Shown here: positions 23,233 to 32,045 of the stretch, piece after piece
How positions within the stretch are numbered: the stretch's first letter is position 1
Layout of the letters: each line of letters opens with the position of its first letter
Origin: Blastocatellia bacterium
GTDB lineage: Bacteria; Acidobacteriota; Blastocatellia; RBC074
Reading direction: 5' to 3'
Length of the DNA stretch: 32,132 nucleotides
Assembly (NCBI GenBank): GCA_031359775.1
Contig: JANMAL010000663.1
Span: forward strand, 1 to 32,132
Notes under the pieces: model-generated
Database searches by the model: none
What the model was told of the DNA's origin: nothing
What the model saw: the letters and a program-made list of their open reading frames with translations, nothing else
Made by a program: the position numbers and the translations under genes

Positions 23233-24438
23233 TTACGGTAAATGAATTGCGGGGGCTGGAGTTGCGGGGCTGTCGGTGCTTTGATTGTCCATCTTGCTCA
23301 TAATTTCGTGGACAATGCGGCGCGTTGCATCAGGAATCGCAATTTTGGCAGAAGCCAGGCGCAGTGCCGCATGCTCCGCCGGGCTGGCAATCAACCGCCG
23401 CACAATCGGTACTACATCAGAGGCCCGTTCCAGCAAAAGACCCGCCTTATTGCGTAGCAGCATATTTGCGGTTTGCAATTCCTGCGGCATGGGAGGCGTC
23501 GTGACGTCCGCAATAATTGGTAAGCGTGAAGCCAATGCTTCAAACGTTGTCAGTCCGCCAAGTTTGGAGATCATCACATCCGCCGCGCGCATTAACTTTT
23601 CCATTGCGTCTGTGTAACCGATGATTTTAATTGGAAAGGGCGAGCGCTTAGCCATCCGGGCCACATCGTTTTGCAGTTCTACATTACGCCCGGCCAGAAA
23701 TACCGCCTGCGTATTTTTAAGCTTGTCTCCCTGGTCAATCATTTGCTCGAAGATGTGGGGAATGTTCCCGCCGCCAATCCAGCCTGCGTTGACAAAAACC
23801 GTGAATTTCTCAGGATCAAGCCCCAGTTCCAGGCGGGCAGCAGCGCGCTCTTCTTCGTTTTCGTACTGGAATTTAGGATGAATGGGAATGCCGCAGATTT
23901 TGATCTTTTCAGGCTGGATGCCGTAATCAATCAATTGCTGTTGCGCCTCTTGCGTTGCTACCAAATATAAACTCACGTCCTCGCACGCCCAGCCGCGCCA
24001 AAAGCCGTAACAAGGATCTGTTACCACCGTAACCAGAGGAATCGTCTCCAGGAGGCCGAGTTCTTTCATCACCCGCGCAAATAAATGCTGTGTCATCGGG
24101 TGAACAGAGATCACAACTTGCGGACAGAAACGCTCAAACAATTGCCGCAGATAATTCACGCCCAAGCGATAAATTAGATTCGATTCGTTCGGTTTGAAGC
24201 GTTCAATCGCCGCATAATAATACTTCATCAATGGCTGATGATTGCGCAGCAGATAGTTGTAAAACTCGGCCAGTTTCTGCGCCAGGAAATGCGATTCTTC
24301 AATCGCCCGCACGACATTCACCAGACAGCCAGGCGCCGAGAAGCGCTTGAGCCCATCGGCAATCGCTGCCGCTGCACTGGTATGTCCTCCACCGGTTGCT
24401 GAAGTGATAATGAGGAACTTTTTAGCGCGCTCGTCCAT
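23233..24438 (-). CDS. GT-B glycosyltransferase of the MGDG-synthase/UgtP (GT28-like) family, putative diacylglycerol glycosyltransferase
   Basis: 401-aa ORF. FLIITSATGGGHTSAAAAIADGL, PQVVISVHP, LVTVVTDPC..W, VSLYLVAT and IKICGIPIHPKF follow the block order of B. subtilis UgtP / MGDG synthases as I recall them. The C-terminal half is Glyco_tran_28_C-like (ADVMISKLGGLTTFEALA). Confidence 0.8.
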   Translation of the reverse strand: MDERAKKFLIITSATGGGHTSAAAAIADGLKRFSAPGCLVNVVRAIEESHFLAQKLAEFYNYLLRNHQPLMKYYYAAIERFKPNESNLIYRLGVNYLRQLFERFCPQVVISVHPMTQHLFARVMKELGLLETIPLVTVVTDPCYGFWRGWACEDVSLYLVATQEAQQQLIDYGIQPEKIKICGIPIHPKFQYENEEERAAARLELGLDPEKFTVFVNAGWIGGGNIPHIFEQMIDQGDKLKNTQAVFLAGRNVELQNDVARMAKRSPFPIKIIGYTDAMEKLMRAADVMISKLGGLTTFEALASRLPIIADVTTPPMPQELQTANMLLRNKAGLLLERASDVVPIVRRLIASPAEHAALRLASAKIAIPDATRRIVHEIMSKMDNQSTDSPATPAPAIHLP

Positions 24439-24463
24439 TAGGAATTGAATGTTGAGGCTGGAG

Positions 24464-25615
24464 TTAATTGACGCTTGCCTCGACCATCGGCCCGCTCAGT
24501 TCGCCCTTATGCGATTTCTTCAATTGATATTCCAGCTTTTTGATTTGGATCAAATGCTTGGGATTGAAGGCGAGCGAGGGGTAGTAGCAATTCGATTCGT
24601 GTGTGCAATGACAACCGCTGCGGGCATGCTGGCGACGCGCTTCCATGGCGGGAGAGTTCCAAAGCTTCCAAAAGTTCCAATCGTAATCACGCAGATTGGC
24701 GACCGGATCAAGGTTTTCGCAACTCGACACCGTGCCTTCATCATAAATCACGCCGCCCGTATTACCTGCGTGACACTGCAACTGTGCTTTCTTTTCGGTC
24801 TCTGTTTTGGCGATGACTTCGTGCATATGAATGTCAATCGCAGCTTTGAAATAGCCGTTTTTGCCCGAATAGTGATTTTTGATAAGAGCTTTGCGCGAGT
24901 CATCGTCAATCAAGGCCGAAAGCTGGCGATAGCGGCTGATGTCAATGTCCAATTCCTTCGCCGCCGCAGCGGGCGGGCGAATGTAATTGACATTGATTTT
25001 GTCAGGTTTTAGCTCATAGCGCAGGAAGTCATACCATTCGAAAATGCGATCCTGATTCGAATTCATAAAGCAAGTACAGGTTTGCACATCCAGTTGCGGA
25101 TGTTGCTTTTTGATTTCCTGTAATTGGCGTGCCGTGTCAATCGCCTTATCCCAACTACCCACTTTGCCGCGAATTTTTTCGTGGTCTTCTTTCAGGCCAT
25201 CAATGCCGAGCGCAACGGTCACATTCAGTTTCGGGCATTCGTCCAGAATACGCGAAACATCCGGCATGATGCGTTGCTGAATGCCACCGTTTGACATCAG
25301 ATACACCGATTCAAGCTGATTGTTTTCGTAAAAAGCGCGCACGATTTCGGGCAGGTCTTTGCGCGTAAATGGTTCACCGCCTGCGATGATGAGCACTGGC
25401 AATTTGCCGCCCAATGTTTCGCTGATGCGTTGCAGATTTTCCGTCGTAAGCTGGTTTTTCTTGCGCGACTTATCGTTCAACTCCTCAGTAAAGAAGCAAT
25501 GAACGCAGCGCATATCGCAAACCGAAGTGACGAGAATGTTGAGCACAACAGGTGAAGTCACCCCACCCGTCAACACGCGAGCATATTTTTTAAGTAGTTC
25601 AAATCCGTAATCCAT
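24464..25615 (-). CDS. Radical SAM enzyme with C-terminal SPASM/twitch-like cysteine cluster
   Basis: Contains CDMRCVHC (CxxxCxxC), IIAGGEPF (the GGE motif), and the C-terminal CHAGNTGGVIYDEGTVSSC followed by CHCTHESNC. ATG 25615 (MDYGF..) has AGGA 7 nt upstream and is preferred over the ORF-track TTG 25645. Confidence 0.85.
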   Translation of the reverse strand: MDYGFELLKKYARVLTGGVTSPVVLNILVTSVCDMRCVHCFFTEELNDKSRKKNQLTTENLQRISETLGGKLPVLIIAGGEPFTRKDLPEIVRAFYENNQLESVYLMSNGGIQQRIMPDVSRILDECPKLNVTVALGIDGLKEDHEKIRGKVGSWDKAIDTARQLQEIKKQHPQLDVQTCTCFMNSNQDRIFEWYDFLRYELKPDKINVNYIRPPAAAAKELDIDISRYRQLSALIDDDSRKALIKNHYSGKNGYFKAAIDIHMHEVIAKTETEKKAQLQCHAGNTGGVIYDEGTVSSCENLDPVANLRDYDWNFWKLWNSPAMEARRQHARSGCHCTHESNCYYPSLAFNPKHLIQIKKLEYQLKKSHKGELSGPMVEASVN

Positions 25616-25899
25616 CAAATTTCCTAACAGGGACAAACCGCTCAAATTATGTAAAGTCCAAGCGACTGCTTATTAAGCTGTTTTTGCGTGCCAATGTCAA
25701 ACGCTCATAAATACTTGGTTTGCTTTGCTGGAAAAAAGTGTTAACCTCCCTCATCGGTTTGACCGAGATAATTGAAACAGGCAAGACAAAGCGGGAGTGA
25801 ACAAAGGGTTCCTAAACACTTTCGTGCTGCCGCAGGGACATTAGGGGAATGTCTACGCTGCCTTACCAAGCGCTATTTCGATAAGGAGACCTGCTCAGC

Positions 25900-26505
25900 A
25901 TGGCCAAATGCCCAGCTTGCCGCAGTGAGAGGGTGTATAAAGGGTATCGTCCCGCGCCGCTTCTTCTTCGGCTCTTACGAATTCACGATTTTTTATGTGA
26001 AAACTGCAACCTGCAATTTCGTGCATTTTCTCTTGCCTCGCCTCGATCACGTACCCGCAAGGGTAAGAAAAGAGAGTCGCAACAAAATTCGCGCATCATT
26101 GAACCTGATACGCCTATCAAAATTACGGAACCTGCACCCGTTTCCCAACCTCGCACTAATCCTCAAAGTAAACCATTGCTGGCGCAAACTGCCAGCGCAG
26201 CGGCTTCAGGTATGAGTCAACCACTGCCGCCATCAAAGGCCAGGTTGGCCCAAAACGAGCCGGTAAAACAAACAATCAAAGGGCAATGGCAAATGCCGGC
26301 GGAGGCCTTGGAGGAACTTGAGACAAGTCGCCGTTCCCATCGCTCTCATCAGATTTGCCCCCATTGTGGTGCTACCGATACGGAACGTCGTCGCCGTAAG
26401 CTATGGGAAAAAGTTACTTTTGCTTTTACGACAATTCGCGCCTACAAATGTCGAATTTGCGGCTCAGATTTTTACGCGCGCCGTAAACAAAAAACCGAAG
26501 CCTGA
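25900..26505 (+). CDS. Hypothetical protein with two zinc-ribbon modules joined by a ~110-aa disordered basic/Pro-rich linker
   Basis: 201-aa ORF, with AAGGAG 11 nt upstream of the ATG. The N-terminal module is CPAC-x25-CENC..F and the C-terminal module is CPHC-x27-CRIC..F. Both are followed by Arg/Lys-rich tails. Confidence 0.6.
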   Translation: MAKCPACRSERVYKGYRPAPLLLRLLRIHDFLCENCNLQFRAFSLASPRSRTRKGKKRESQQNSRIIEPDTPIKITEPAPVSQPRTNPQSKPLLAQTASAAASGMSQPLPPSKARLAQNEPVKQTIKGQWQMPAEALEELETSRRSHRSHQICPHCGATDTERRRRKLWEKVTFAFTTIRAYKCRICGSDFYARRKQKTEA

Positions 26506-26516
26506 CAGTTCCTCAA

Positions 26517-27065
26517 TTAAGGCAAATAAAACGGCATTACCCAGTCACCATAAACCAATACGCCTGCTTTTACCTCTTCCAGTAAGCGCGGGAAGCTCAG
26601 CGTAAGTTCATACGCCTCGCCGGGTTTGAGTTGAATGCGTCCGCTGTCGGGAACTTTGCCAGTGGTTGGCATGCGGTCTTTCAGCTTATATTCATTGCAC
26701 TGCTCATCGCGCAAATACGCCCGGCCTTTTTCATTAATCAGCCATCTTCCGCGACTCATCGAATATTGCGGCACATCAAATTCCACCGACTCATGCACGG
26801 CATACGCAATCAGCTTGACGCTGGTTTGTTCGGGTTCATTGCGAACTGAAACCAGCGCCAGCCGTACGTTGCCTTTGGGTTGGGTAGCAGGAATACACGT
26901 CTGAAATTTCGCGCGTTCGCTTTGGCGCCACTCGGCTTCCGTTAATTTTTTTTCGCGCCGACAAGAGGCCCCACCAATTACAAATAAAACAGCAATACAA
27001 AAAAAGAGAAAGAACGTGCTGCCCCGTTGCCTACTGTTTCCAGCCTGTAGCCTTTGACTTTGCAT
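26517..27065 (-). CDS. Small exported protein / possible lipoprotein, hypothetical
   Basis: ATG 27065 (MQSQRLQ..) has AAGGTG 5 nt upstream and lies 4 nt after the upstream stop. The ORF-track start 27086 would overlap that gene. It has a hydrophobic signal (STFFLFFCIAVLFVIGGAS-C) with a weak lipobox-like Cys. Confidence 0.55.
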   Translation of the reverse strand: MQSQRLQAGNSRQRGSTFFLFFCIAVLFVIGGASCRREKKLTEAEWRQSERAKFQTCIPATQPKGNVRLALVSVRNEPEQTSVKLIAYAVHESVEFDVPQYSMSRGRWLINEKGRAYLRDEQCNEYKLKDRMPTTGKVPDSGRIQLKPGEAYELTLSFPRLLEEVKAGVLVYGDWVMPFYLP

Positions 27066-27069
27066 GGTT

Positions 27070-28992
27070 TCACCTTGCGCGTACATACGGACGTGATTGC
27101 ACTATATAAATTTGCTTGCCCACAGTTAACCATTCAATATCCTGATCACGCCCATTGAAAGTGCGCTTGATCTTTGCGGCGGCCCGTGCCAGGCGCTGAA
27201 TTAAGTCATTCGTCAGCACAGCGCGATTGGTTTCGATTTTGATTTCGCGCACGCCGCCCTGTGCATCGAATTTCAGCATGGTGTCATCGTCTGAACGCGT
27301 CAACACCTTGATTGCGCTGGAACGCGGTTGGTAAATAATTTGCTCGGCGACGCGTTTGCCCTCGACCACGCGAATGCCCAAGCCGCGCTTAGCATTAAGA
27401 TAAATAGCGCCTTTGTCTTCGGCATCGAATGGATTGGTCGTAATCATCACCCCGGCGGCATCGGCGTTGATCCCTTCCTGTATTAAGACTGATGGATAGA
27501 CAGCAGAATGATTGATGCCTGCACTTTCCCGCGCTTCATAGGCTTCGTAATTCCAGAGGGAGGCCCAGACCGTTTTGATCGCTTCGTCCAAGGCCGCCTC
27601 GCTTTTGACATTTGGAACACTGGTGTACAGACCTGCACCGCTGAAGTTGGGCAAATCTTCAGAGTTCGTCGAACTGCGCGCAAATACACCTTTTTTTTCC
27701 AAGCTGCCGAAGGTTGACCGCACTTTTGCGTGTAGCCTTTGCTGGAAAGTGGAATTATGCTTTCCTGCTTGAATGCTTTGCCGCAGTTCTGCCAACTGTT
27801 GCTTGCGATACGCTGGATCGTGATTAAAGCGGTCGTTGCCCAACAAAGTAACAATTTTTTCAGTCAGTTTATTATCTTGCAAAAACTGCTCGTAAAAAGA
27901 AAACGGAACGCTGAATCCTGGCGGCACAATCACGCCGGGAAGCTTGCCTAAGGTCGCCGCGTGCATCACTTCGCCAAGGTTGGCTGCTTTGGCACCGAAG
28001 CGCTGTGCATGTTTCATTCGCTGGTCTTTGAGTTCAGTCAATTGCTGGAATTCCAAATCAGCTTCAGGCGTCAATAAATTTGAGCGTTCGGCAAGCTTGC
28101 GTCCGGCTTCGGCAGTTTCCTTAAGTTCCGCCGCGCGTAGCACGAAACCATCCTCGCGCGCCTCGAAGTAAACGAATTTACCAACCAGTGCTTTGAATAT
28201 CTCATCCGCATTTTTTACGTAAGCGTTGGGAATGCCCCAGCCCGCCGCCAGCAAATTCACGTGGGCCAGTGGTGTTGAGAAATTTGTTGTAATAACGCCC
28301 GACACTGGCGTAAGCGTGATGGGCGACTCGCGGAAGATAACGATTTCGTTGCGATCCAGAATCGTGTCATCCGTCACCTTGTCAATCACGCGCAGCATCC
28401 CGACAGCTCTGGCCTGATGGAGCGGCAAGTAATCTTTCGTCGTGCCAAGCTCCGCCGCACGTAGGGTGGGCAGGTCTTTAAGCTGGCCCGCCGAAGTCTC
28501 CTGATGCTTGGAATTTGGTTTGAAATAGAGCGGCGCAAAAAATGAAGCGGTAAGTTTTTGTGCAGCCTCTTTTAATAGCTCAGCCGTGACCAAATCACCT
28601 TCCCAAAACTCGAAGGTAAACTTGTTCGCTTTGGTTTGAAAGGCAATTGTGCCGAGCAAAAAGCGCCGCTCACTTTCCAGATAATTGTGTTTGAAGAATT
28701 CCCGCCCGCGTTCGAGCGTGAGATAATTAGCGTTGACGAAATCCTTGTGGAAGGAGTAACCCTTGGAGTTCACATAGTACACTTGGCCTTGCGGGGCGCG
28801 ATCTATCACAAACATCAAATGCGGCAACGCGTAAAAACGACCTTGATAATAGATGCGCGCCAGTTGGTCGAATTCAGCGTGCGTTTTAATATGATCGCGC
28901 GAACGAGGCGTGACTGGCCCTGTACTGCGGCTGATTTGGGCCGAAGTTGGAGTCAGCAGCAATAGCAAAAGTAAAGCAGTGAGGAGTTTCAT
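27070..28992 (-). CDS. Signal-peptide-bearing dikinase-like protein: unknown N-domain + PEP-utiliser His-swivel-like domain + PPDK_N (PEP/pyruvate-binding ATP-grasp) domain
   Basis: It has a Sec-type signal ([19 protein letters not shown]). The C-terminal ~310 aa carry PPDK_N hallmarks ([76 protein letters not shown]). Residues ~215-300 ([43 protein letters not shown]...[16 protein letters not shown]) resemble the mobile phospho-His domain. ATG 28992 is preferred over GTG 29001. Confidence 0.7.
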
Positions 28993-29001
28993 AAATTCCA
29001 C

Positions 29002-29985
29002 ATGACAAAGTTGGAAAAAAAACTACGCGCCAGTTTGCGCAAGCTGAATATTAGCAAACAGGCTCGAATTCTGGTTGCGGTTTCCGGCGGTGCCGACTCA
29101 ACCGCGCTGCTGGATGCTTTGGCGCGTTGGAAAAAATCCGAACATCTTTTTGCCGCCCATCTGAACCACTTATTGCGCGGCGCAGAATCGGCTGCTGATG
29201 AAACGTTTGTGCGCGCAATAACCGGACAGCGTAATGTGCCGGTTTTTATTGCGCAGGAAAATGTTGCCGCCTATGCGGCGGACGAGAAAAAAAATCTGGA
29301 GGCCACCGCGCGCCGCCTGCGCTATGACTTTTTGCTGCGCACTGCCGCGCACTGCCAAGCGGAAGTCATTGTGACGGCTCATACCCACGACGATCAAGTC
29401 GAGACGTTACTAATGCGATTGTTGCGCGGGACGAGCGCCGCCGGATTGCAGGGGATTCACTCGCAAGTCGCGCTCTCTGCTACTGTCCAATTGCTTCGCC
29501 CTATTTTGGAAATCACCCGAATTGAGGTACTCGAACATTGTGAACGGTATCAACTGCCTTTTCGGCAAGACAGCTCGAACGCATCGGCAGAGTTTACGCG
29601 TAATCGCGTTCGCCACGAGTTGTTGCCTTTGTTGCAAACCTTCAATCCCAACTTTGGAGCGACACTTATTCGTACGGCTTTCCAACTGAATGAAGATGAT
29701 GAGCATCTACAATTCGAAGCGGGGCGCTGGGTTAATGAATTATCTGAAGACCAGGCGCTCAACTTTGCTCCGCTCCGCACCTTGCACGGGGCTTTGCGGC
29801 GACGCATATTGCTGCATTGGCTTAGGCGGACGCGCGGCGCTGTCAAGCGCCTTGGTACAGTTCATTTAATAGCGATTGAGCATTTAATATTGCAAGGCGA
29901 GGGTGGTCGTTATGTCGAGTTGCCTGGCAACTGGCGCATTTATCGGTGTGGCATGCGGCTAAAGCTGCAACCGGTCGCAAAATGA
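29002..29985 (+). CDS. tilS: tRNA(Ile)-lysidine synthetase
   Basis: 327-aa ORF. It has the PP-loop [18 protein letters not shown], plus HLNHLLRG and [18 protein letters not shown], all typical TilS blocks. It lies upstream of ftsH as in many bacteria. Confidence 0.85.
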
Positions 29986-30131: not shown

Positions 30132-32045
30132 TTGAACTCGACAATGAAACAAGTGCTTGTTTGGGTGCTCATGATCGTGGGCGCAGTTGCTATTTATGCT
30201 TTCCTGCATAGCACCGGCAGTAATATTCAGGAAATTTCTTACCTGGAATTGGTGCGGAAAATTGGCAATAAAGAAGTGCAGGCGGCGATCATCAAGCCCA
30301 GCGAAGTCACCGGGTCGCTAACCAGCGGAGTCAAATTTACCAGCAAGATTTCCGGCGATGCCGTTTCTGCAAAGTTGGCAGATGAGCTGGTCAAGAATAG
30401 TGTTGACGTTAAATTTGACAACACTTCGACAGGTGGTTTGTGGGCATCAATCTTAATTACCTGGGCACCAATTCTGCTTATTGCTGCTTTCTGGATTTTC
30501 ATGCTGCGGCAAATGCAATCCGGCGGTAACAAAGCTCTCTCATTTGGTAAGAGCCGCGCCAAATTGTTGTCTAATCAACAAAAACGCGTGACCTTCAAGG
30601 ACGTCGCAGGCGTCGAAGAAGCCAAAGAAGAGTTACAGGAAATTATTGAATTTTTGAAAGAGCCGCAAAAATTTCAAAAACTGGGCGGGCGCATTCCCAA
30701 GGGCGTCTTGATGATGGGGCCGCCAGGCACGGGCAAAACGTTGCTGGCGCGGGCCATCGCGGGTGAAGCGAACGTACCGTTTTTCTCCATTTCAGGTTCT
30801 GATTTCGTGGAAATGTTTGTCGGCGTCGGTGCGAGCCGCGTCCGCGATCTGTTTGAGCAAGGCAAGAAAAACGCCCCTTGTATCATCTTCATTGATGAAA
30901 TTGACGCAGTGGGTCGGCATCGTGGTGCGGGCCTGGGCGGCGGTCACGACGAACGTGAACAAACGCTCAACCAGCTATTAGTAGAGATGGATGGCTTTGA
31001 ATCGAATGACGGGGTAATTCTCATTGCCTCGACCAATCGCCCGGACGTCCTTGATCCGGCGTTGCTCAGACCTGGACGCTTTGATCGTCGGGTGGTTGTA
31101 AACCGTCCTGATGTGCGAGGCCGCGAAGGAATTCTGGCCGTTCACACACGGAAAATCCCACTGGGTGAAGACGTCGAAATCTTTGTGATTGCGCGTGGTA
31201 CTCCTGGTTTCACGGGCGCTGATCTTGCCAATCTTGTTAATGAAGCTGCGCTGAATGCGGCTCGCTTCAACAAGAAAGCCGTTTCGATGTACGATTTCGA
31301 ATGGGCAAAAGATAAGGTGCTGATGGGGTCAGAACGTAAATCTGCGGTGATGTCCGAAGATGAAAAAAAGACGACAGCTTATCACGAAGCAGGTCATACG
31401 ATCATTGGCATGAAAGTGCCGAATGCTGATCCAGTTCACAAAGTCACGATTATTCCGCGCGGTATGGCGCTTGGTCTGACGCAGCAATTGCCTGAAGGAG
31501 ACCGCTATACGCACAGTTCGGAATACATCGAAGGTTCGATTGCGATTCTGATGGGTGGGCGCTTGGCCGAAGAAATCTTCCTCGGCAAAATTACCACTGG
31601 AGCCTCAAATGACATCGAACGTGCAACAGAAATGGCGCGCAAGATGGTTTGCGAATTCGGTATGTCAAGCCTCGGCCCGTTAACTTTTGGTAAGAAGGAA
31701 GAGCAAATCTTTCTGGGCCGTGAAATCGCACAACATCAGGATTATAGTGAAGACACTGCCATCATGATTGACCAGGAAGTGAAACGTATCGTGATGGATC
31801 AATACGAACGTGCGCGTCAACTGATGCTTGAAAACAAAGAAGTGACGGAGAAGCTGGCGCTGGCGTTGCTGCAAAAAGAAACGCTGGATGCTGTGCAAAT
31901 TCGCCGAGTTGTTGCAGGCTTGCCGTTAGATGATGATGGGCCGTCTCCGAGCAAAACTCCTGACGTACCCAAATCACCGGACAAAGAACCAATGCTGAAG
32001 CCGATCCTGCCGCCCATCACGGGTGGTAATCCGGCGACAGCCTGA
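30132..32045 (+). CDS. ftsH: ATP-dependent zinc metalloprotease FtsH
   Basis: It has an N-terminal TM, Walker A (GPPGTGKT), Walker B (IIFIDEIDA), the SRH ([19 protein letters not shown]) and the zinc motif HEAGH. TTG 30132 lies 9 nt after GGAGG. The alternative ATG is at 30144. Confidence 0.95.

Follow-up and report, generated by a model that had tools for sequence, protein, structure and literature searches.

The window, that is the whole stretch of 32,132 nucleotides analysed here (Blastocatellia bacterium, assembly GCA_031359775.1, contig JANMAL010000663.1, positions 1 to 32,132 of the forward strand), carries two adjacent genes on its minus strand, hereafter called A and B. Gene A (27070 to 28992, including the stop codon at 27070-27072) lies within an open reading frame of 27070-29001, and its translation from the ATG at 28992 yields a dikinase-like protein of 640 amino acids whose first residues form a predicted export signal. 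Gene B (26517 to 27065) encodes a protein of 182 amino acids, a predicted small lipoprotein. More than 4600 homologues of A were found, the nearest in Blastocatellia MAGs, and clustering of the family at 50% identity gives 1200 clusters or more. Since relatives with as little as ~27% identity still have the signal leader, the phospho-carrier His and the residues of the ATP-grasp, these features of A are more than chance. A search for RNA evidence recovered the window sequence in DNA metagenome runs only, from freshwater sediment. The window gave no Rfam or tRNA matches, and a scan for promoters and terminators found no more of them than expected from shuffled sequence.

Domain organisation of the dikinase-like protein

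The C-terminal part of A (27082 to 28002, minus strand, aa 331-637) is an ATP-grasp nucleotide-binding domain. A first-pass annotation, made from the sequence alone, had assigned the last ~310 amino acids to the PPDK_N type, and Pfam bears this out, since PPDK_N (PF01326) matches aa 331-637 with an E-value of 1.1e-52 and 179.9 bits, for a cut-off of 27. A profile of the family matched PpsA and RPH structures with E-values of 1e-63 to 1e-53 and with the motifs aligned, and a Foldseek search using the predicted model of A retrieved RPH and PpsA (E 6e-18 to 1e-14), RPH in complex with AMPPNP (5hv3) reaching E 6e-18. The nucleotide- and Mg-binding motifs (Lys of G-x-K-x-x-N-L, RSS...ED, D-x-E and Q-x-R) align to the same motifs in PpsA structures. 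In A they are found as GAKAANLGE (K335), an 11-residue stretch containing R439, E445 and D446, then Q505 and E550 and, near the C-terminus, QDIEW (D618, E620) and VQSRP (Q632, R634). In a set of 40 diverse members, residues K335, R439, S440, S441, E445, D446, Q505, E550, D618, E620, Q632 and R634 either never vary or are conserved to 90% or more, so that the ATP-binding residues, when set against PpsA and RPH, proved to be retained and aligned rather than degenerate. Every catalytic residue, the phospho-carrier His among them, is kept by the window protein and by 38 of these 40 members. Two divergent members (P0221 and P0253) have lost both this His and the ATP-grasp motifs and have kept His82 of the N-terminal domain; this joint loss fits one coupled catalytic apparatus.

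Upstream of the ATP-grasp domain lies a phosphohistidine swivel domain (28093 to 28434, minus strand, aa ~187-300), in which the catalytic His244 (codon 28261-28263) sits within a 19-residue motif. The first-pass annotation had placed such a domain at residues ~215-300 with its His retained; the assignment and the His hold at the level of the family, and the domain is slightly wider than had been proposed. Its proposed check with an HMM of PEP-utilizers gave a divided answer. The test fails for the window sequence taken alone, because aa 1-331 have no Pfam match even at E<=10 (nor any NCBIfam match), and succeeds with family members and the family profile: PF00391 (PEP-utilizers) matches the same segment in 23 of 35 diverse members (best E 1.3e-4), and PF22973 (GWD1_pHisD) matches it weakly in 13 of the 35 (best E 5.7e-5) and not at all in the window protein. 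A profile of the swivel segment also matched PpsA swivels in the PDB (8a8e, E 0.0012; 2ols, E 0.0075), placing His244 on the catalytic His. This residue is at least 90% conserved in one alignment (A1) and invariant in another (A4). In the AF2 model of A, His244 is predicted to open a short helix (H244-251) within a beta-rich domain, and Foldseek matched the model to the swivelling beta/beta/alpha fold of 2hi6 (E 1e-3). A mobile phosphohistidine domain with its His at the start of a helix is thereby recognised in the family.

The segment between the leader and the swivel (28435 to 28887, minus strand, aa ~36-186) is supported by conservation in diverse alignments and by a confident AF2 model (pLDDT 84.7, pTM 0.83), which predicts an alpha/beta fold. 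His82 is invariant and Asp133, in the motif FWEGD, is nearly so; RRF (109-111) and FKPNS (157-161) are further motifs. Profile and per-member scans gave no recurrent Pfam match and no PDB sequence match, but single unrelated chance matches only. Foldseek with the modelled isolated domain returned nothing significant in the PDB (best E 0.16, TM 0.27) or in BFVD; the top PDB match at these values, polyphosphate kinase 1 (PPK1), and the APOBEC matches after it were all treated as noise. We also rejected an HKD/PLD-like reading of the motif FHKDF, since conservation in it is limited to the His and its residues are not spaced as in HxK(x)4D. The first-pass annotation had recognised nothing in the first ~190 mature residues, and the wider search agrees: this is a new domain, with no sequence or fold relative in Pfam, the PDB or BFVD. 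Its invariant His may define a new phospho-acceptor site.

Export signal, partner gene and distribution

The leader of A (28936 to 28992, minus strand, aa 1-19) reads as a Sec signal peptide of the SPI type, with K2, a Leu-rich core and a predicted T-S-A|Q cleavage site in the usual n-h-c layout. Judged by heuristics, it combines a basic n-region, a hydrophobic core within 10-20 residues, small residues at -3 and -1, and conservation. Among 144 close homologues, the uncharged N-terminal stretch measures 19 residues in the median; an AxA-like site was found in 131 and A-Q or A-E ends the stretch in 109. The leader is retained in 140 of 145 close homologues although its sequence drifts, and an N-terminal hydrophobic region is present in 56 of 63 (~90%) distant full-length representatives. 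A textbook lipobox followed by Pro/Ala/Ser linkers occurs in 14 of these 63. The mature chains are nearly devoid of Cys, with none in 123 of 144 and a content of 0.03%, compared with 0.70% in the other ORFs of the window. The Sec signal proposed by the first-pass annotation is thus a family-wide trait as far as sequence can tell, and export of A looks real.

The junction between A and B (27066 to 27076, minus strand) is tight. The ATG of B at 27065 lies 4 nt past the TGA of A (27072-27070), and the motif AAGGTG at 27076-27071 overlaps that stop codon. Five other loci (L004-L007 and L018) share the +4 spacing and have an (A/G)AGGT(G/A) motif, and an ATG in the frame of B falls within -4 to +11 nt of the stop of A in ~17 of 23 orthologous loci. 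These data support the translational coupling to a 182-aa exported partner that had been proposed from the window, and with it the overall picture, predicted from sequence, of an enzyme of the dikinase type that bears an export signal and is coupled to a small exported partner.

B is itself a predicted lipoprotein. The codon of its putative lipobox Cys35 is at 26961-26963 and this Cys is at least 90% conserved. In the window the putative lipobox is G-A-S-C, which is atypical at position -3 compared with [LVI][ASTVI][GAS]C; close orthologues have L/V-N/D-S-C, and more distant ones canonical versions such as LAGC, LSAC and VGCA. Cys57 and Cys123 are invariant, and a core SRGRWLINE...DEQCxEYKLKD is conserved. 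A predicted lipoprotein with two invariant Cys as partner also speaks for export of A. Searches against PDB sequences, Pfam and NCBIfam gave no PDB or NCBIfam match and no recurrent Pfam match, only stray weak ones. Weak matches to Ig-like Pfam families, seen in 3-4 of 41 members, hint at best at a beta-sandwich.

The distribution of B is narrow. It was found downstream of A in 24 of 33 loci in which A is at least 63% identical, and was undetected by tblastn (E <= 1e-5) in 52 of 53 loci with an A of 50-59% identity, the exception being L036. The 78 clusters of B are all annotated as hypothetical, and every one with a named source comes from Blastocatellia or Acidobacteria. B thus does not extend beyond a single Blastocatellia orthologue group and is therefore an accessory, not a core, part of the system. 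The survey of orthologues suggested by the first-pass annotation thus gave opposite results for the two traits, the signal being retained widely and the coupling to B not being general.

Within Blastocatellia, orthologues of A share a conserved synteny of tilS-ftsH, A-B and a Zn-ribbon gene, and the link of A to two housekeeping genes, tilS and ftsH, is stable over identities of 63-100%. Only in the closest relatives is A also linked to radical SAM/SPASM and MGDG-synthase-like genes, and paralogue groups and distant members have unrelated neighbourhoods that differ by lineage. Across the lineages compared, no conserved operon pointed to an acceptor and genomic context gave no functional inference. 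Members of the A family with signal peptides occur in many phyla and also within giant multidomain proteins. From genomic context or MAG labels, the lineages include Acidobacteriota and a T9SS-bearing, Bacteroidota-like lineage; Proteobacteria and a Myxococcota-like lineage are tentative assignments only. A Chloracidobacterium MAG contains a homologue 52% identical to A (L073) and another homologue (P0273) is labelled Pyrinomonas sp., so that cultured relatives in the same class make the question of what A does a testable one.

Candidate function and competing readings

We give about even chances to the reading in which A is exported and catalytically competent and, as a dikinase, transfers phosphate to an envelope or extracellular acceptor held by the new N-terminal domain. 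The Sec signal peptide would take A over the inner membrane, as a like signal or a lipoprotein signal would do for its relatives. If A works as PpsA, RPH and GWD do, its ATP-grasp domain would then bind a nucleoside triphosphate, His244 would accept the beta-phosphate, and the gamma-phosphate would pass to water or phosphate. As in these enzymes, the swivel would pivot and deliver the phosphoryl group to an acceptor on the N-terminal domain, in a site that we infer to be formed by the invariant His82, Asp133 and the RRF and FKPNS motifs. Given the location of A, the acceptor should be an envelope or extracellular molecule, for example a glycan or another polymer of the kind that GWD acts on, or a small molecule like the substrate of RPH. 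In the Blastocatellia orthologue group, B, which is co-translated and a predicted lipoprotein, probably tethers soluble A at a membrane or regulates it; in the lineages where A bears a lipobox, that anchor would presumably fulfil the role of B.

This reading meets a difficulty of energy supply. The periplasm is held to be without ATP, and envelope chemistry hence runs on lipid-linked or pre-activated donors; no ATP supply to this compartment is known. Sec exports unfolded chains, so an exported A cannot carry a preloaded nucleotide with it. Further points against the reading are that the residues just past the predicted cleavage site are often basic, a less than optimal arrangement for Sec export in E. 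coli, that the swivel of the window protein escapes Pfam, and that no conserved operon indicates an acceptor. An enzyme class mechanistically tied to nucleoside triphosphate is here found in a form predicted to be exported, and, in a family of 1200 or more clusters at 50% identity whose catalytic residues are intact, a choice is forced between an unrecognised extracytoplasmic nucleotide supply, an unknown donor and action in other cells. Each of these three outcomes would be new biology. The most far-reaching version, namely a widespread family of truly extracytoplasmic nucleotide-driven dikinases with an acceptor domain of a kind not seen before, through which a polymer or metabolite of the envelope or the cell's surroundings is phosphorylated, is put forward tentatively, as somewhat short of an even bet. 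If true, the periplasm or cell surface of diderm bacteria of several lineages would contain a usable NTP pool or some other high-energy phosphate donor.

Action in other cells would make A a secreted effector or toxin, leaving the producing cell by a secretion system, in vesicles or on lysis and phosphorylating a target in another cell, with B as a periplasmic lipoprotein serving as immunity protein or chaperone. The ATP problem would be solved, as ATP is plentiful inside the other cell, the tightly coupled downstream gene for a small lipoprotein resembles effector-immunity pairs, and the occurrence of the family in many phyla and in giant multidomain proteins suits such a role. We nevertheless consider it unlikely, as the tilS/ftsH synteny looks vertically inherited rather than polymorphic or mobile and the loci inspected in detail contain no secretion-system, Rhs, VgrG or mobile-element genes. 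Moreover, A is widespread without B, and a periplasmic immunity protein would be needless against an enzyme requiring cytoplasmic ATP.

A donor other than ATP seems to us rather improbable, and a little more so than release into other cells. An exported A might run the dikinase reaction in reverse, from a phospho-acceptor, AMP and phosphate or pyrophosphate, or use PPi or polyphosphate, possibly for phosphate scavenging or to take a phosphate ester off a substrate in the envelope or outside the cell. PPDK-type reactions are indeed reversible and the location has no known ATP pool, and the first fold match of the N-terminal domain was, weakly, PPK1. That match is however not significant, no phosphate-starvation genes lie near A, and extracellular AMP is no more available than ATP. 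The adenine-, phosphate- and Mg-binding residues are, furthermore, all conserved as in the ATP-using relatives.

The ATP problem would also vanish if the leader were an uncleaved N-terminal anchor, with the N-terminus outside and the bulk of the enzyme in the cytoplasm, an option that the first-pass annotation had raised as an unusual membrane topology. In close homologues, the 10 residues that follow the uncharged stretch carry a higher net charge (median +2) than the part before it (median +1), which under the positive-inside rule could favour a cytoplasmic C-terminus, and the characterised relatives are all cytoplasmic or plastidial. Against this, the hydrophobic core is short and mostly terminated by the AxA-like site, the signal is family-wide, and the mature chains avoid Cys almost totally. 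Lipoprotein processing takes place at the outer face of the inner membrane, to which the lipoboxes of the distant members commit the chain, and the partner B is a predicted lipoprotein too. We hold such an anchor to be quite improbable. Finally, a non-catalytic exported binding protein, an option likewise raised by the first-pass annotation, would keep the dikinase scaffold only to bind a phospho-ligand or a nucleotide and could, for instance, sense extracellular ATP. It would match the pseudo-enzyme branch of P0221 and P0253 and is very improbable for A, whose swivel His and nucleotide-binding residues are under strong constraint in the window protein and 38 of the 40 members, whereas binding alone would not need them.

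Comparison with known dikinases

By its sequence, A is a member of the swivelling-histidine dikinase superfamily, which includes PpsA, PPDK, RPH and GWD. Within the searchable literature on exported or periplasmic dikinases and PPDK_N proteins, we found no description of the A family.

With PpsA and PPDK, which are cytoplasmic and have no signal peptide, A shares a clearly homologous ATP-grasp domain (profile E 1e-63 to 8a8e) and a homologous swivel domain in which the catalytic His is aligned. Their order is ATP-grasp, His domain and TIM barrel, whereas in A the order is reversed and the ATP-grasp domain is C-terminal. A has no C-terminal PEP/pyruvate-binding TIM barrel, PPDK_N being the only Pfam match on it. 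NCBIfam models of PpsA scored 161 and 154 bits on A, for equivalog cut-offs of 598 and 740, and covered the ATP-grasp domain only.

RPH, also a cytoplasmic enzyme, is the best structural match to the modelled ATP-grasp domain (the 5hv3 entry given above). Together with its relatives (PigC/RedH/HapC and the HpeI two-component kinase), it shares with A a three-part logic of ATP-grasp, swivel His and dedicated acceptor domain. The arrangement differs, with ATP-grasp, rifampicin-binding domain and swivel in RPH as opposed to acceptor domain, swivel and ATP-grasp in A, and A is devoid of the rifampicin-binding domain. The RPH models NF041857 (RIF_Ptrans_rph) and NF000283 gave 128 bits for a cut-off of 999 and 74 for 1700, respectively, and matched the ATP-grasp domain alone. 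As the RIF_Ptrans_rph score is so far under its cut-off, the label "rifampicin phosphotransferase" that some homologues of A carry at JGI is an over-annotation.

A similar problem of supply is posed by Lig E, which has a signal peptide, performs nucleotide-dependent chemistry and is thought to be periplasmic or extracellular (PMC10799422; bioRxiv 10.64898/2026.03.22.713542). The analogy concerns the problem and implies no homology, the fold and the reaction being unrelated: Lig E spends one adenylation per ligation, and a dikinase one NTP per phosphoryl transfer.

The closest parallel in layout comes from plants. The first-pass annotation had called the domain order of A inverted; the premise that this order is unprecedented falls with glucan,water dikinase, in which the order is CBM45-CBM45-central domain-His domain-ATP-binding domain (PMC13553574). 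As in A, acceptor-side domains in GWD1 and PWD are followed by a phosphohistidine domain and a C-terminal PPDK_N-type domain, and in GWD1 the pivoting His domain carries phosphate from the C-terminal ATP domain to the upstream acceptor region (PMC13553574). In both GWD1/PWD and A the His stands at the start of a short helix; the GWD-type pHis domain was compared through its Pfam model only, with the weak family matches described above. A differs in having neither CBM45 or CBM20 nor the large all-alpha central domain, and one new alpha/beta domain of 150 aa instead; the GWD1 central-domain entries 9HA9 and 9QVI were not among the PDB fold matches listed for the N-terminal domain. The acceptor-His-ATP-grasp layout of plants is known only from very large starch dikinases, of which full structures are still missing (PMC12892837). 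GWD is plastidial, like PWD, and has ~1400 aa, in contrast to the 640 aa of the bacterial A with its predicted Sec export, whose family would offer a compact (~620 aa) bacterial model of the acceptor-His-ATP-grasp dikinase layout.

Organization of the A-B locus

Gene A lies on the reverse strand within an ORF listed from 29001 to 27070. Read from the ATG at 28992 to the TGA at 27072-27070, it gives the 640-aa protein just as the first-pass annotation had described it. Its TGA stop is separated by 4 nt from the ATG of gene B (27065, end at 26517, reverse strand, 182 aa), ahead of which AAGGTG stands at 27076-27071. A second in-frame ATG is present further upstream, at 27086; it is conserved only because the last codons of A, for a conserved Pro-Tyr-Val, happen to contain it, and the start at 27065, with its Shine-Dalgarno motif, is the better call. 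Upstream of A and divergent from it are tilS (29002-29985, forward strand) and ftsH (30132-32045). The start codons of A and tilS are 9 nt apart (window 28992-29002), and this lack of intergenic room implies that each promoter must sit within the coding region of the other gene; a consensus scan revealed no promoter-like site in this stretch.

Convergent with B, at a distance of 11 nt, is a gene encoding a 201-aa zinc-ribbon protein with two CxxC motifs and weak FmdB- and Lar-like matches (25900-26505, forward strand), which adjoins A-B in most orthologous loci with 27-91% identity. Downstream of B (23233-25645), the reverse strand encodes a 393-aa radical SAM/SPASM protein and a 401-aa MGDG-synthase-like glycosyltransferase. 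Because their linkage to A-B is confined to the closest relatives (loci L004-L007 and L018), the two are probably unrelated to the function of A. The nearest homologues of A belong to MAGs labelled Blastocatellia (Acidobacteriota), and the sequence is present in freshwater sediment metagenomes.

Predicted export and domain architecture of A

Export was judged by the conservation of the leader among homologues. An N-terminal hydrophobic core was observed in 140 of the 145 close homologues (at least 600 aa), 144 of which carry the anchor motif and were used for leader statistics. In these 144, the uncharged leader stretch has a median of 19 residues, an AxA-like site occurs in 131 and the leader ends in A-Q or A-E in 109; the leader sequence drifts freely while the layout stays. 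As a caveat on export, basic residues are common directly past the predicted cleavage site. With aa 1-330 as query, 1208 clusters were matched among 1.8 billion cluster representatives, and the hydrophobic region is kept in 56/63 full-length distant members (27-49% identity), most of those lacking it looking truncated or mis-started. Textbook lipoboxes (LVACS, VVGCR, LAGCA, VLGCE, etc.), followed by Pro/Ala/Ser-rich linkers, were found in 14 distant members. Lipoproteins are matured at the outer surface of the inner membrane, so that these lipoboxes largely exclude an N-out/C-in anchor. Mature A is devoid of cysteine, as are 123/144 close homologues over about 600 mature residues (0.03% Cys in mature A-type chains versus 0.70% for the window's remaining ORFs), and 0 or 2 cysteines are favoured in distant members; this scarcity may be taken as an independent, soft sign of export. 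No twin-arginine motif was found, which argues for export of an unfolded chain and hence for an enzyme that cannot be pre-loaded in the cytoplasm.

PPDK_N is the sole Pfam domain in A (aa 331-637, E 1.1e-52). Matches to the NCBIfam PpsA, RPH and PigC models are confined to this stretch, with scores four- to ten-fold under the equivalog cut-offs, indicating that A is none of these three enzymes. The modelled ATP-grasp superposes on AMPPNP-bound rifampicin phosphotransferase (Foldseek E 6e-18) and also on PpsA. Across the diverse alignment, each of its nucleotide- and Mg-binding motifs (K335, R439-S440-S441, E445-D446, Q505, E550, D618-x-E620 and Q632-x-R634) shows at least 90% conservation or is invariant.

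The swivel domain that had been proposed ahead of it was not recovered by Pfam from A's own sequence, the first 331 aa giving no match even at E<=10, so that the HMM check set out in the first-pass annotation fails for this sequence taken alone, but it is supported at the family level. When 40 diverse full-length relatives were made into a profile, three PpsA structures gave their swivel domain as a second match, two with i-E 0.016 and 0.29 and the third (9dae) nominal only at i-E 18; in these alignments STPLSHxNLLAR, the family motif, faces PpsA swivel GGRTSHAAIVSRE. A profile restricted to the swivel segment gave E 0.0012 and 0.0075 for the same PpsA swivels. In separate scans of 35 members, PF00391 (PEP-utilizers) was detected in 23 and PF22973 (alpha-glucan,water dikinase phosphohistidine domain) in 13. 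In the AlphaFold2 model of A (mean pLDDT 79.5), aa 188-287 make up a beta-rich domain in which a short helix begins at His244, and Foldseek with the whole model also retrieved 2hi6 (swivelling beta/beta/alpha fold, E 1e-3). Two giant multidomain proteins, P0210 (3227 aa) and P0222 (2025 aa), both with signal-peptide-like N-termini, were matched through the swivel part of the aa 1-330 query (aa ~174-323).

Modelled alone, aa ~36-186 are confidently predicted as an alpha/beta domain (pLDDT 84.7, pTM 0.83) with no significant fold match in PDB (best E 0.16, TM 0.27) or BFVD. Sequence searches gave nothing in PDB, and no Pfam match recurred among 34 diverse members. His82 is the only residue of the N-terminal segment invariant across the diverse alignment; Asp133, within an (E/D)FWEGD motif, is nearly so, and RRF and FKPNS motifs are also present. 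Its place in the chain and the comparison with the RPH and GWD acceptor domains make it the putative acceptor-binding domain. In two divergent members of the 40-relative alignment, P0221 and P0253, loss of the carrier His goes along with loss of the ATP-grasp motifs, as expected if these form one catalytic unit. They look like a pseudo-dikinase branch; both retain His82, suggesting a separate role for the N-domain.

The partner B across the family

The N-terminus of B comprises a basic n-region and a hydrophobic core followed by Cys35, which is at least 90% conserved; the putative lipobox is atypical here (G-A-S-C) and canonical in more distant orthologues. Cys57, Cys123 and a SRGRWLINE...DEQCxEYKLKD core are invariant, which suggests a disulfide-bonded periplasmic fold. 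No relatives of B were found in Pfam or PDB, with only faint Ig-like hints. Its family comprises 78 clusters, those with a named source being all Blastocatellia/Acidobacteria and the remainder unnamed.

Coupling of A and B holds in the orthologue group but not family-wide. Among 83 related loci compared, B is downstream of A in 24 of the 33 that have an A of 63% identity or more, a group in which the upstream tilS-ftsH pair and the downstream zinc-ribbon gene are also retained, and the start of B lies -4 to +11 nt from the stop of A in about 17/23 loci having B. Where A is 50-59% identical, B was not detected by tblastn (E <= 1e-5), except in locus L036. In a marine lineage (locus L084, 7417-15275), translational coupling links a 29%-identical member to a 194-aa multi-pass membrane protein encoded upstream. 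After this member come two exported proteins without Pfam match, one of 439 aa and a repetitive one of 807 aa, and then a 426-aa protein without evident signal; the neighbourhood is a different, envelope-flavoured one. No consistent neighbours were seen for a distant member on a T9SS-bearing contig, probably from Bacteroidota (Por_Secre_tail and PorZ genes nearby), and another distant member is overlapped by the gene of a 267-aa uncharacterised protein. The limited spread of B and these differing neighbours indicate a clade-specific accessory. In our preferred reading B may tether A, in the way that A's own lipid anchor would in other lineages.

Proposed mechanism and comparison with known dikinases

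The domain identities, the conservation of residues and leader and the gene coupling are shown by the data; reaction direction, site of action and the roles of the N-domain and B are inferred. In the best-supported reading, to which we give about even odds, A is an exported, catalytically competent dikinase in which nucleotide would be bound by the ATP-grasp, His244 phosphorylated, the His domain swivelled and the phosphoryl group handed to an acceptor on the N-domain, B serving as modulator or anchor in this clade. A could instead be a secreted effector active in the cytoplasm of another cell, but this is unlikely: synteny with housekeeping genes is stable, no genes for secretion or mobile elements were seen in the loci examined closely, and B is restricted to one clade. 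Slightly less probable still is that A runs reverse or alternative-donor chemistry. We consider a membrane-anchored cytoplasmic enzyme improbable in view of the lipoboxes, AxA sites and cysteine avoidance. A non-catalytic binder is very improbable, the catalytic residues being fully conserved.

The first-pass observation was confirmed and its interpretation partly upheld, from sequence, for export and intact catalysis, but neither for an unprecedented domain order nor for a general coupling to the partner. Its premise of dikinases with the ATP-grasp in first place was incomplete: potato GWD1 is ordered CBM45, CBM45, central domain, His domain and ATP-binding domain, and its His domain pivots to bring phosphate from the ATP site at the C-terminus over to the acceptor side (PMC13553574; PMC12892837). 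The family of A shares this order, and some members match the GWD phosphohistidine Pfam model; in contrast to GWD1, it lacks starch-binding modules and the all-alpha central domain, and its proteins are exported and under half the size. PpsA and PPDK are ruled out since A has no TIM-barrel PEP/pyruvate domain, and RPH since the rifampicin-binding domain is missing and the score is far under cut-off; some homologues are over-annotated as 'rifampicin phosphotransferase'. No exported PPDK_N or dikinase family was found described in the open-access papers and preprints searched, and the family of A is widespread and, it appears, undescribed. As a nucleotide-dependent enzyme that bears a periplasmic targeting signal, Lig E is the closest precedent in concept. 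Taken together, the swivelling-His dikinase machinery is arranged here in a GWD-like, compact and exported form, with a new putative acceptor domain. The interest of the family lies in the donor problem.
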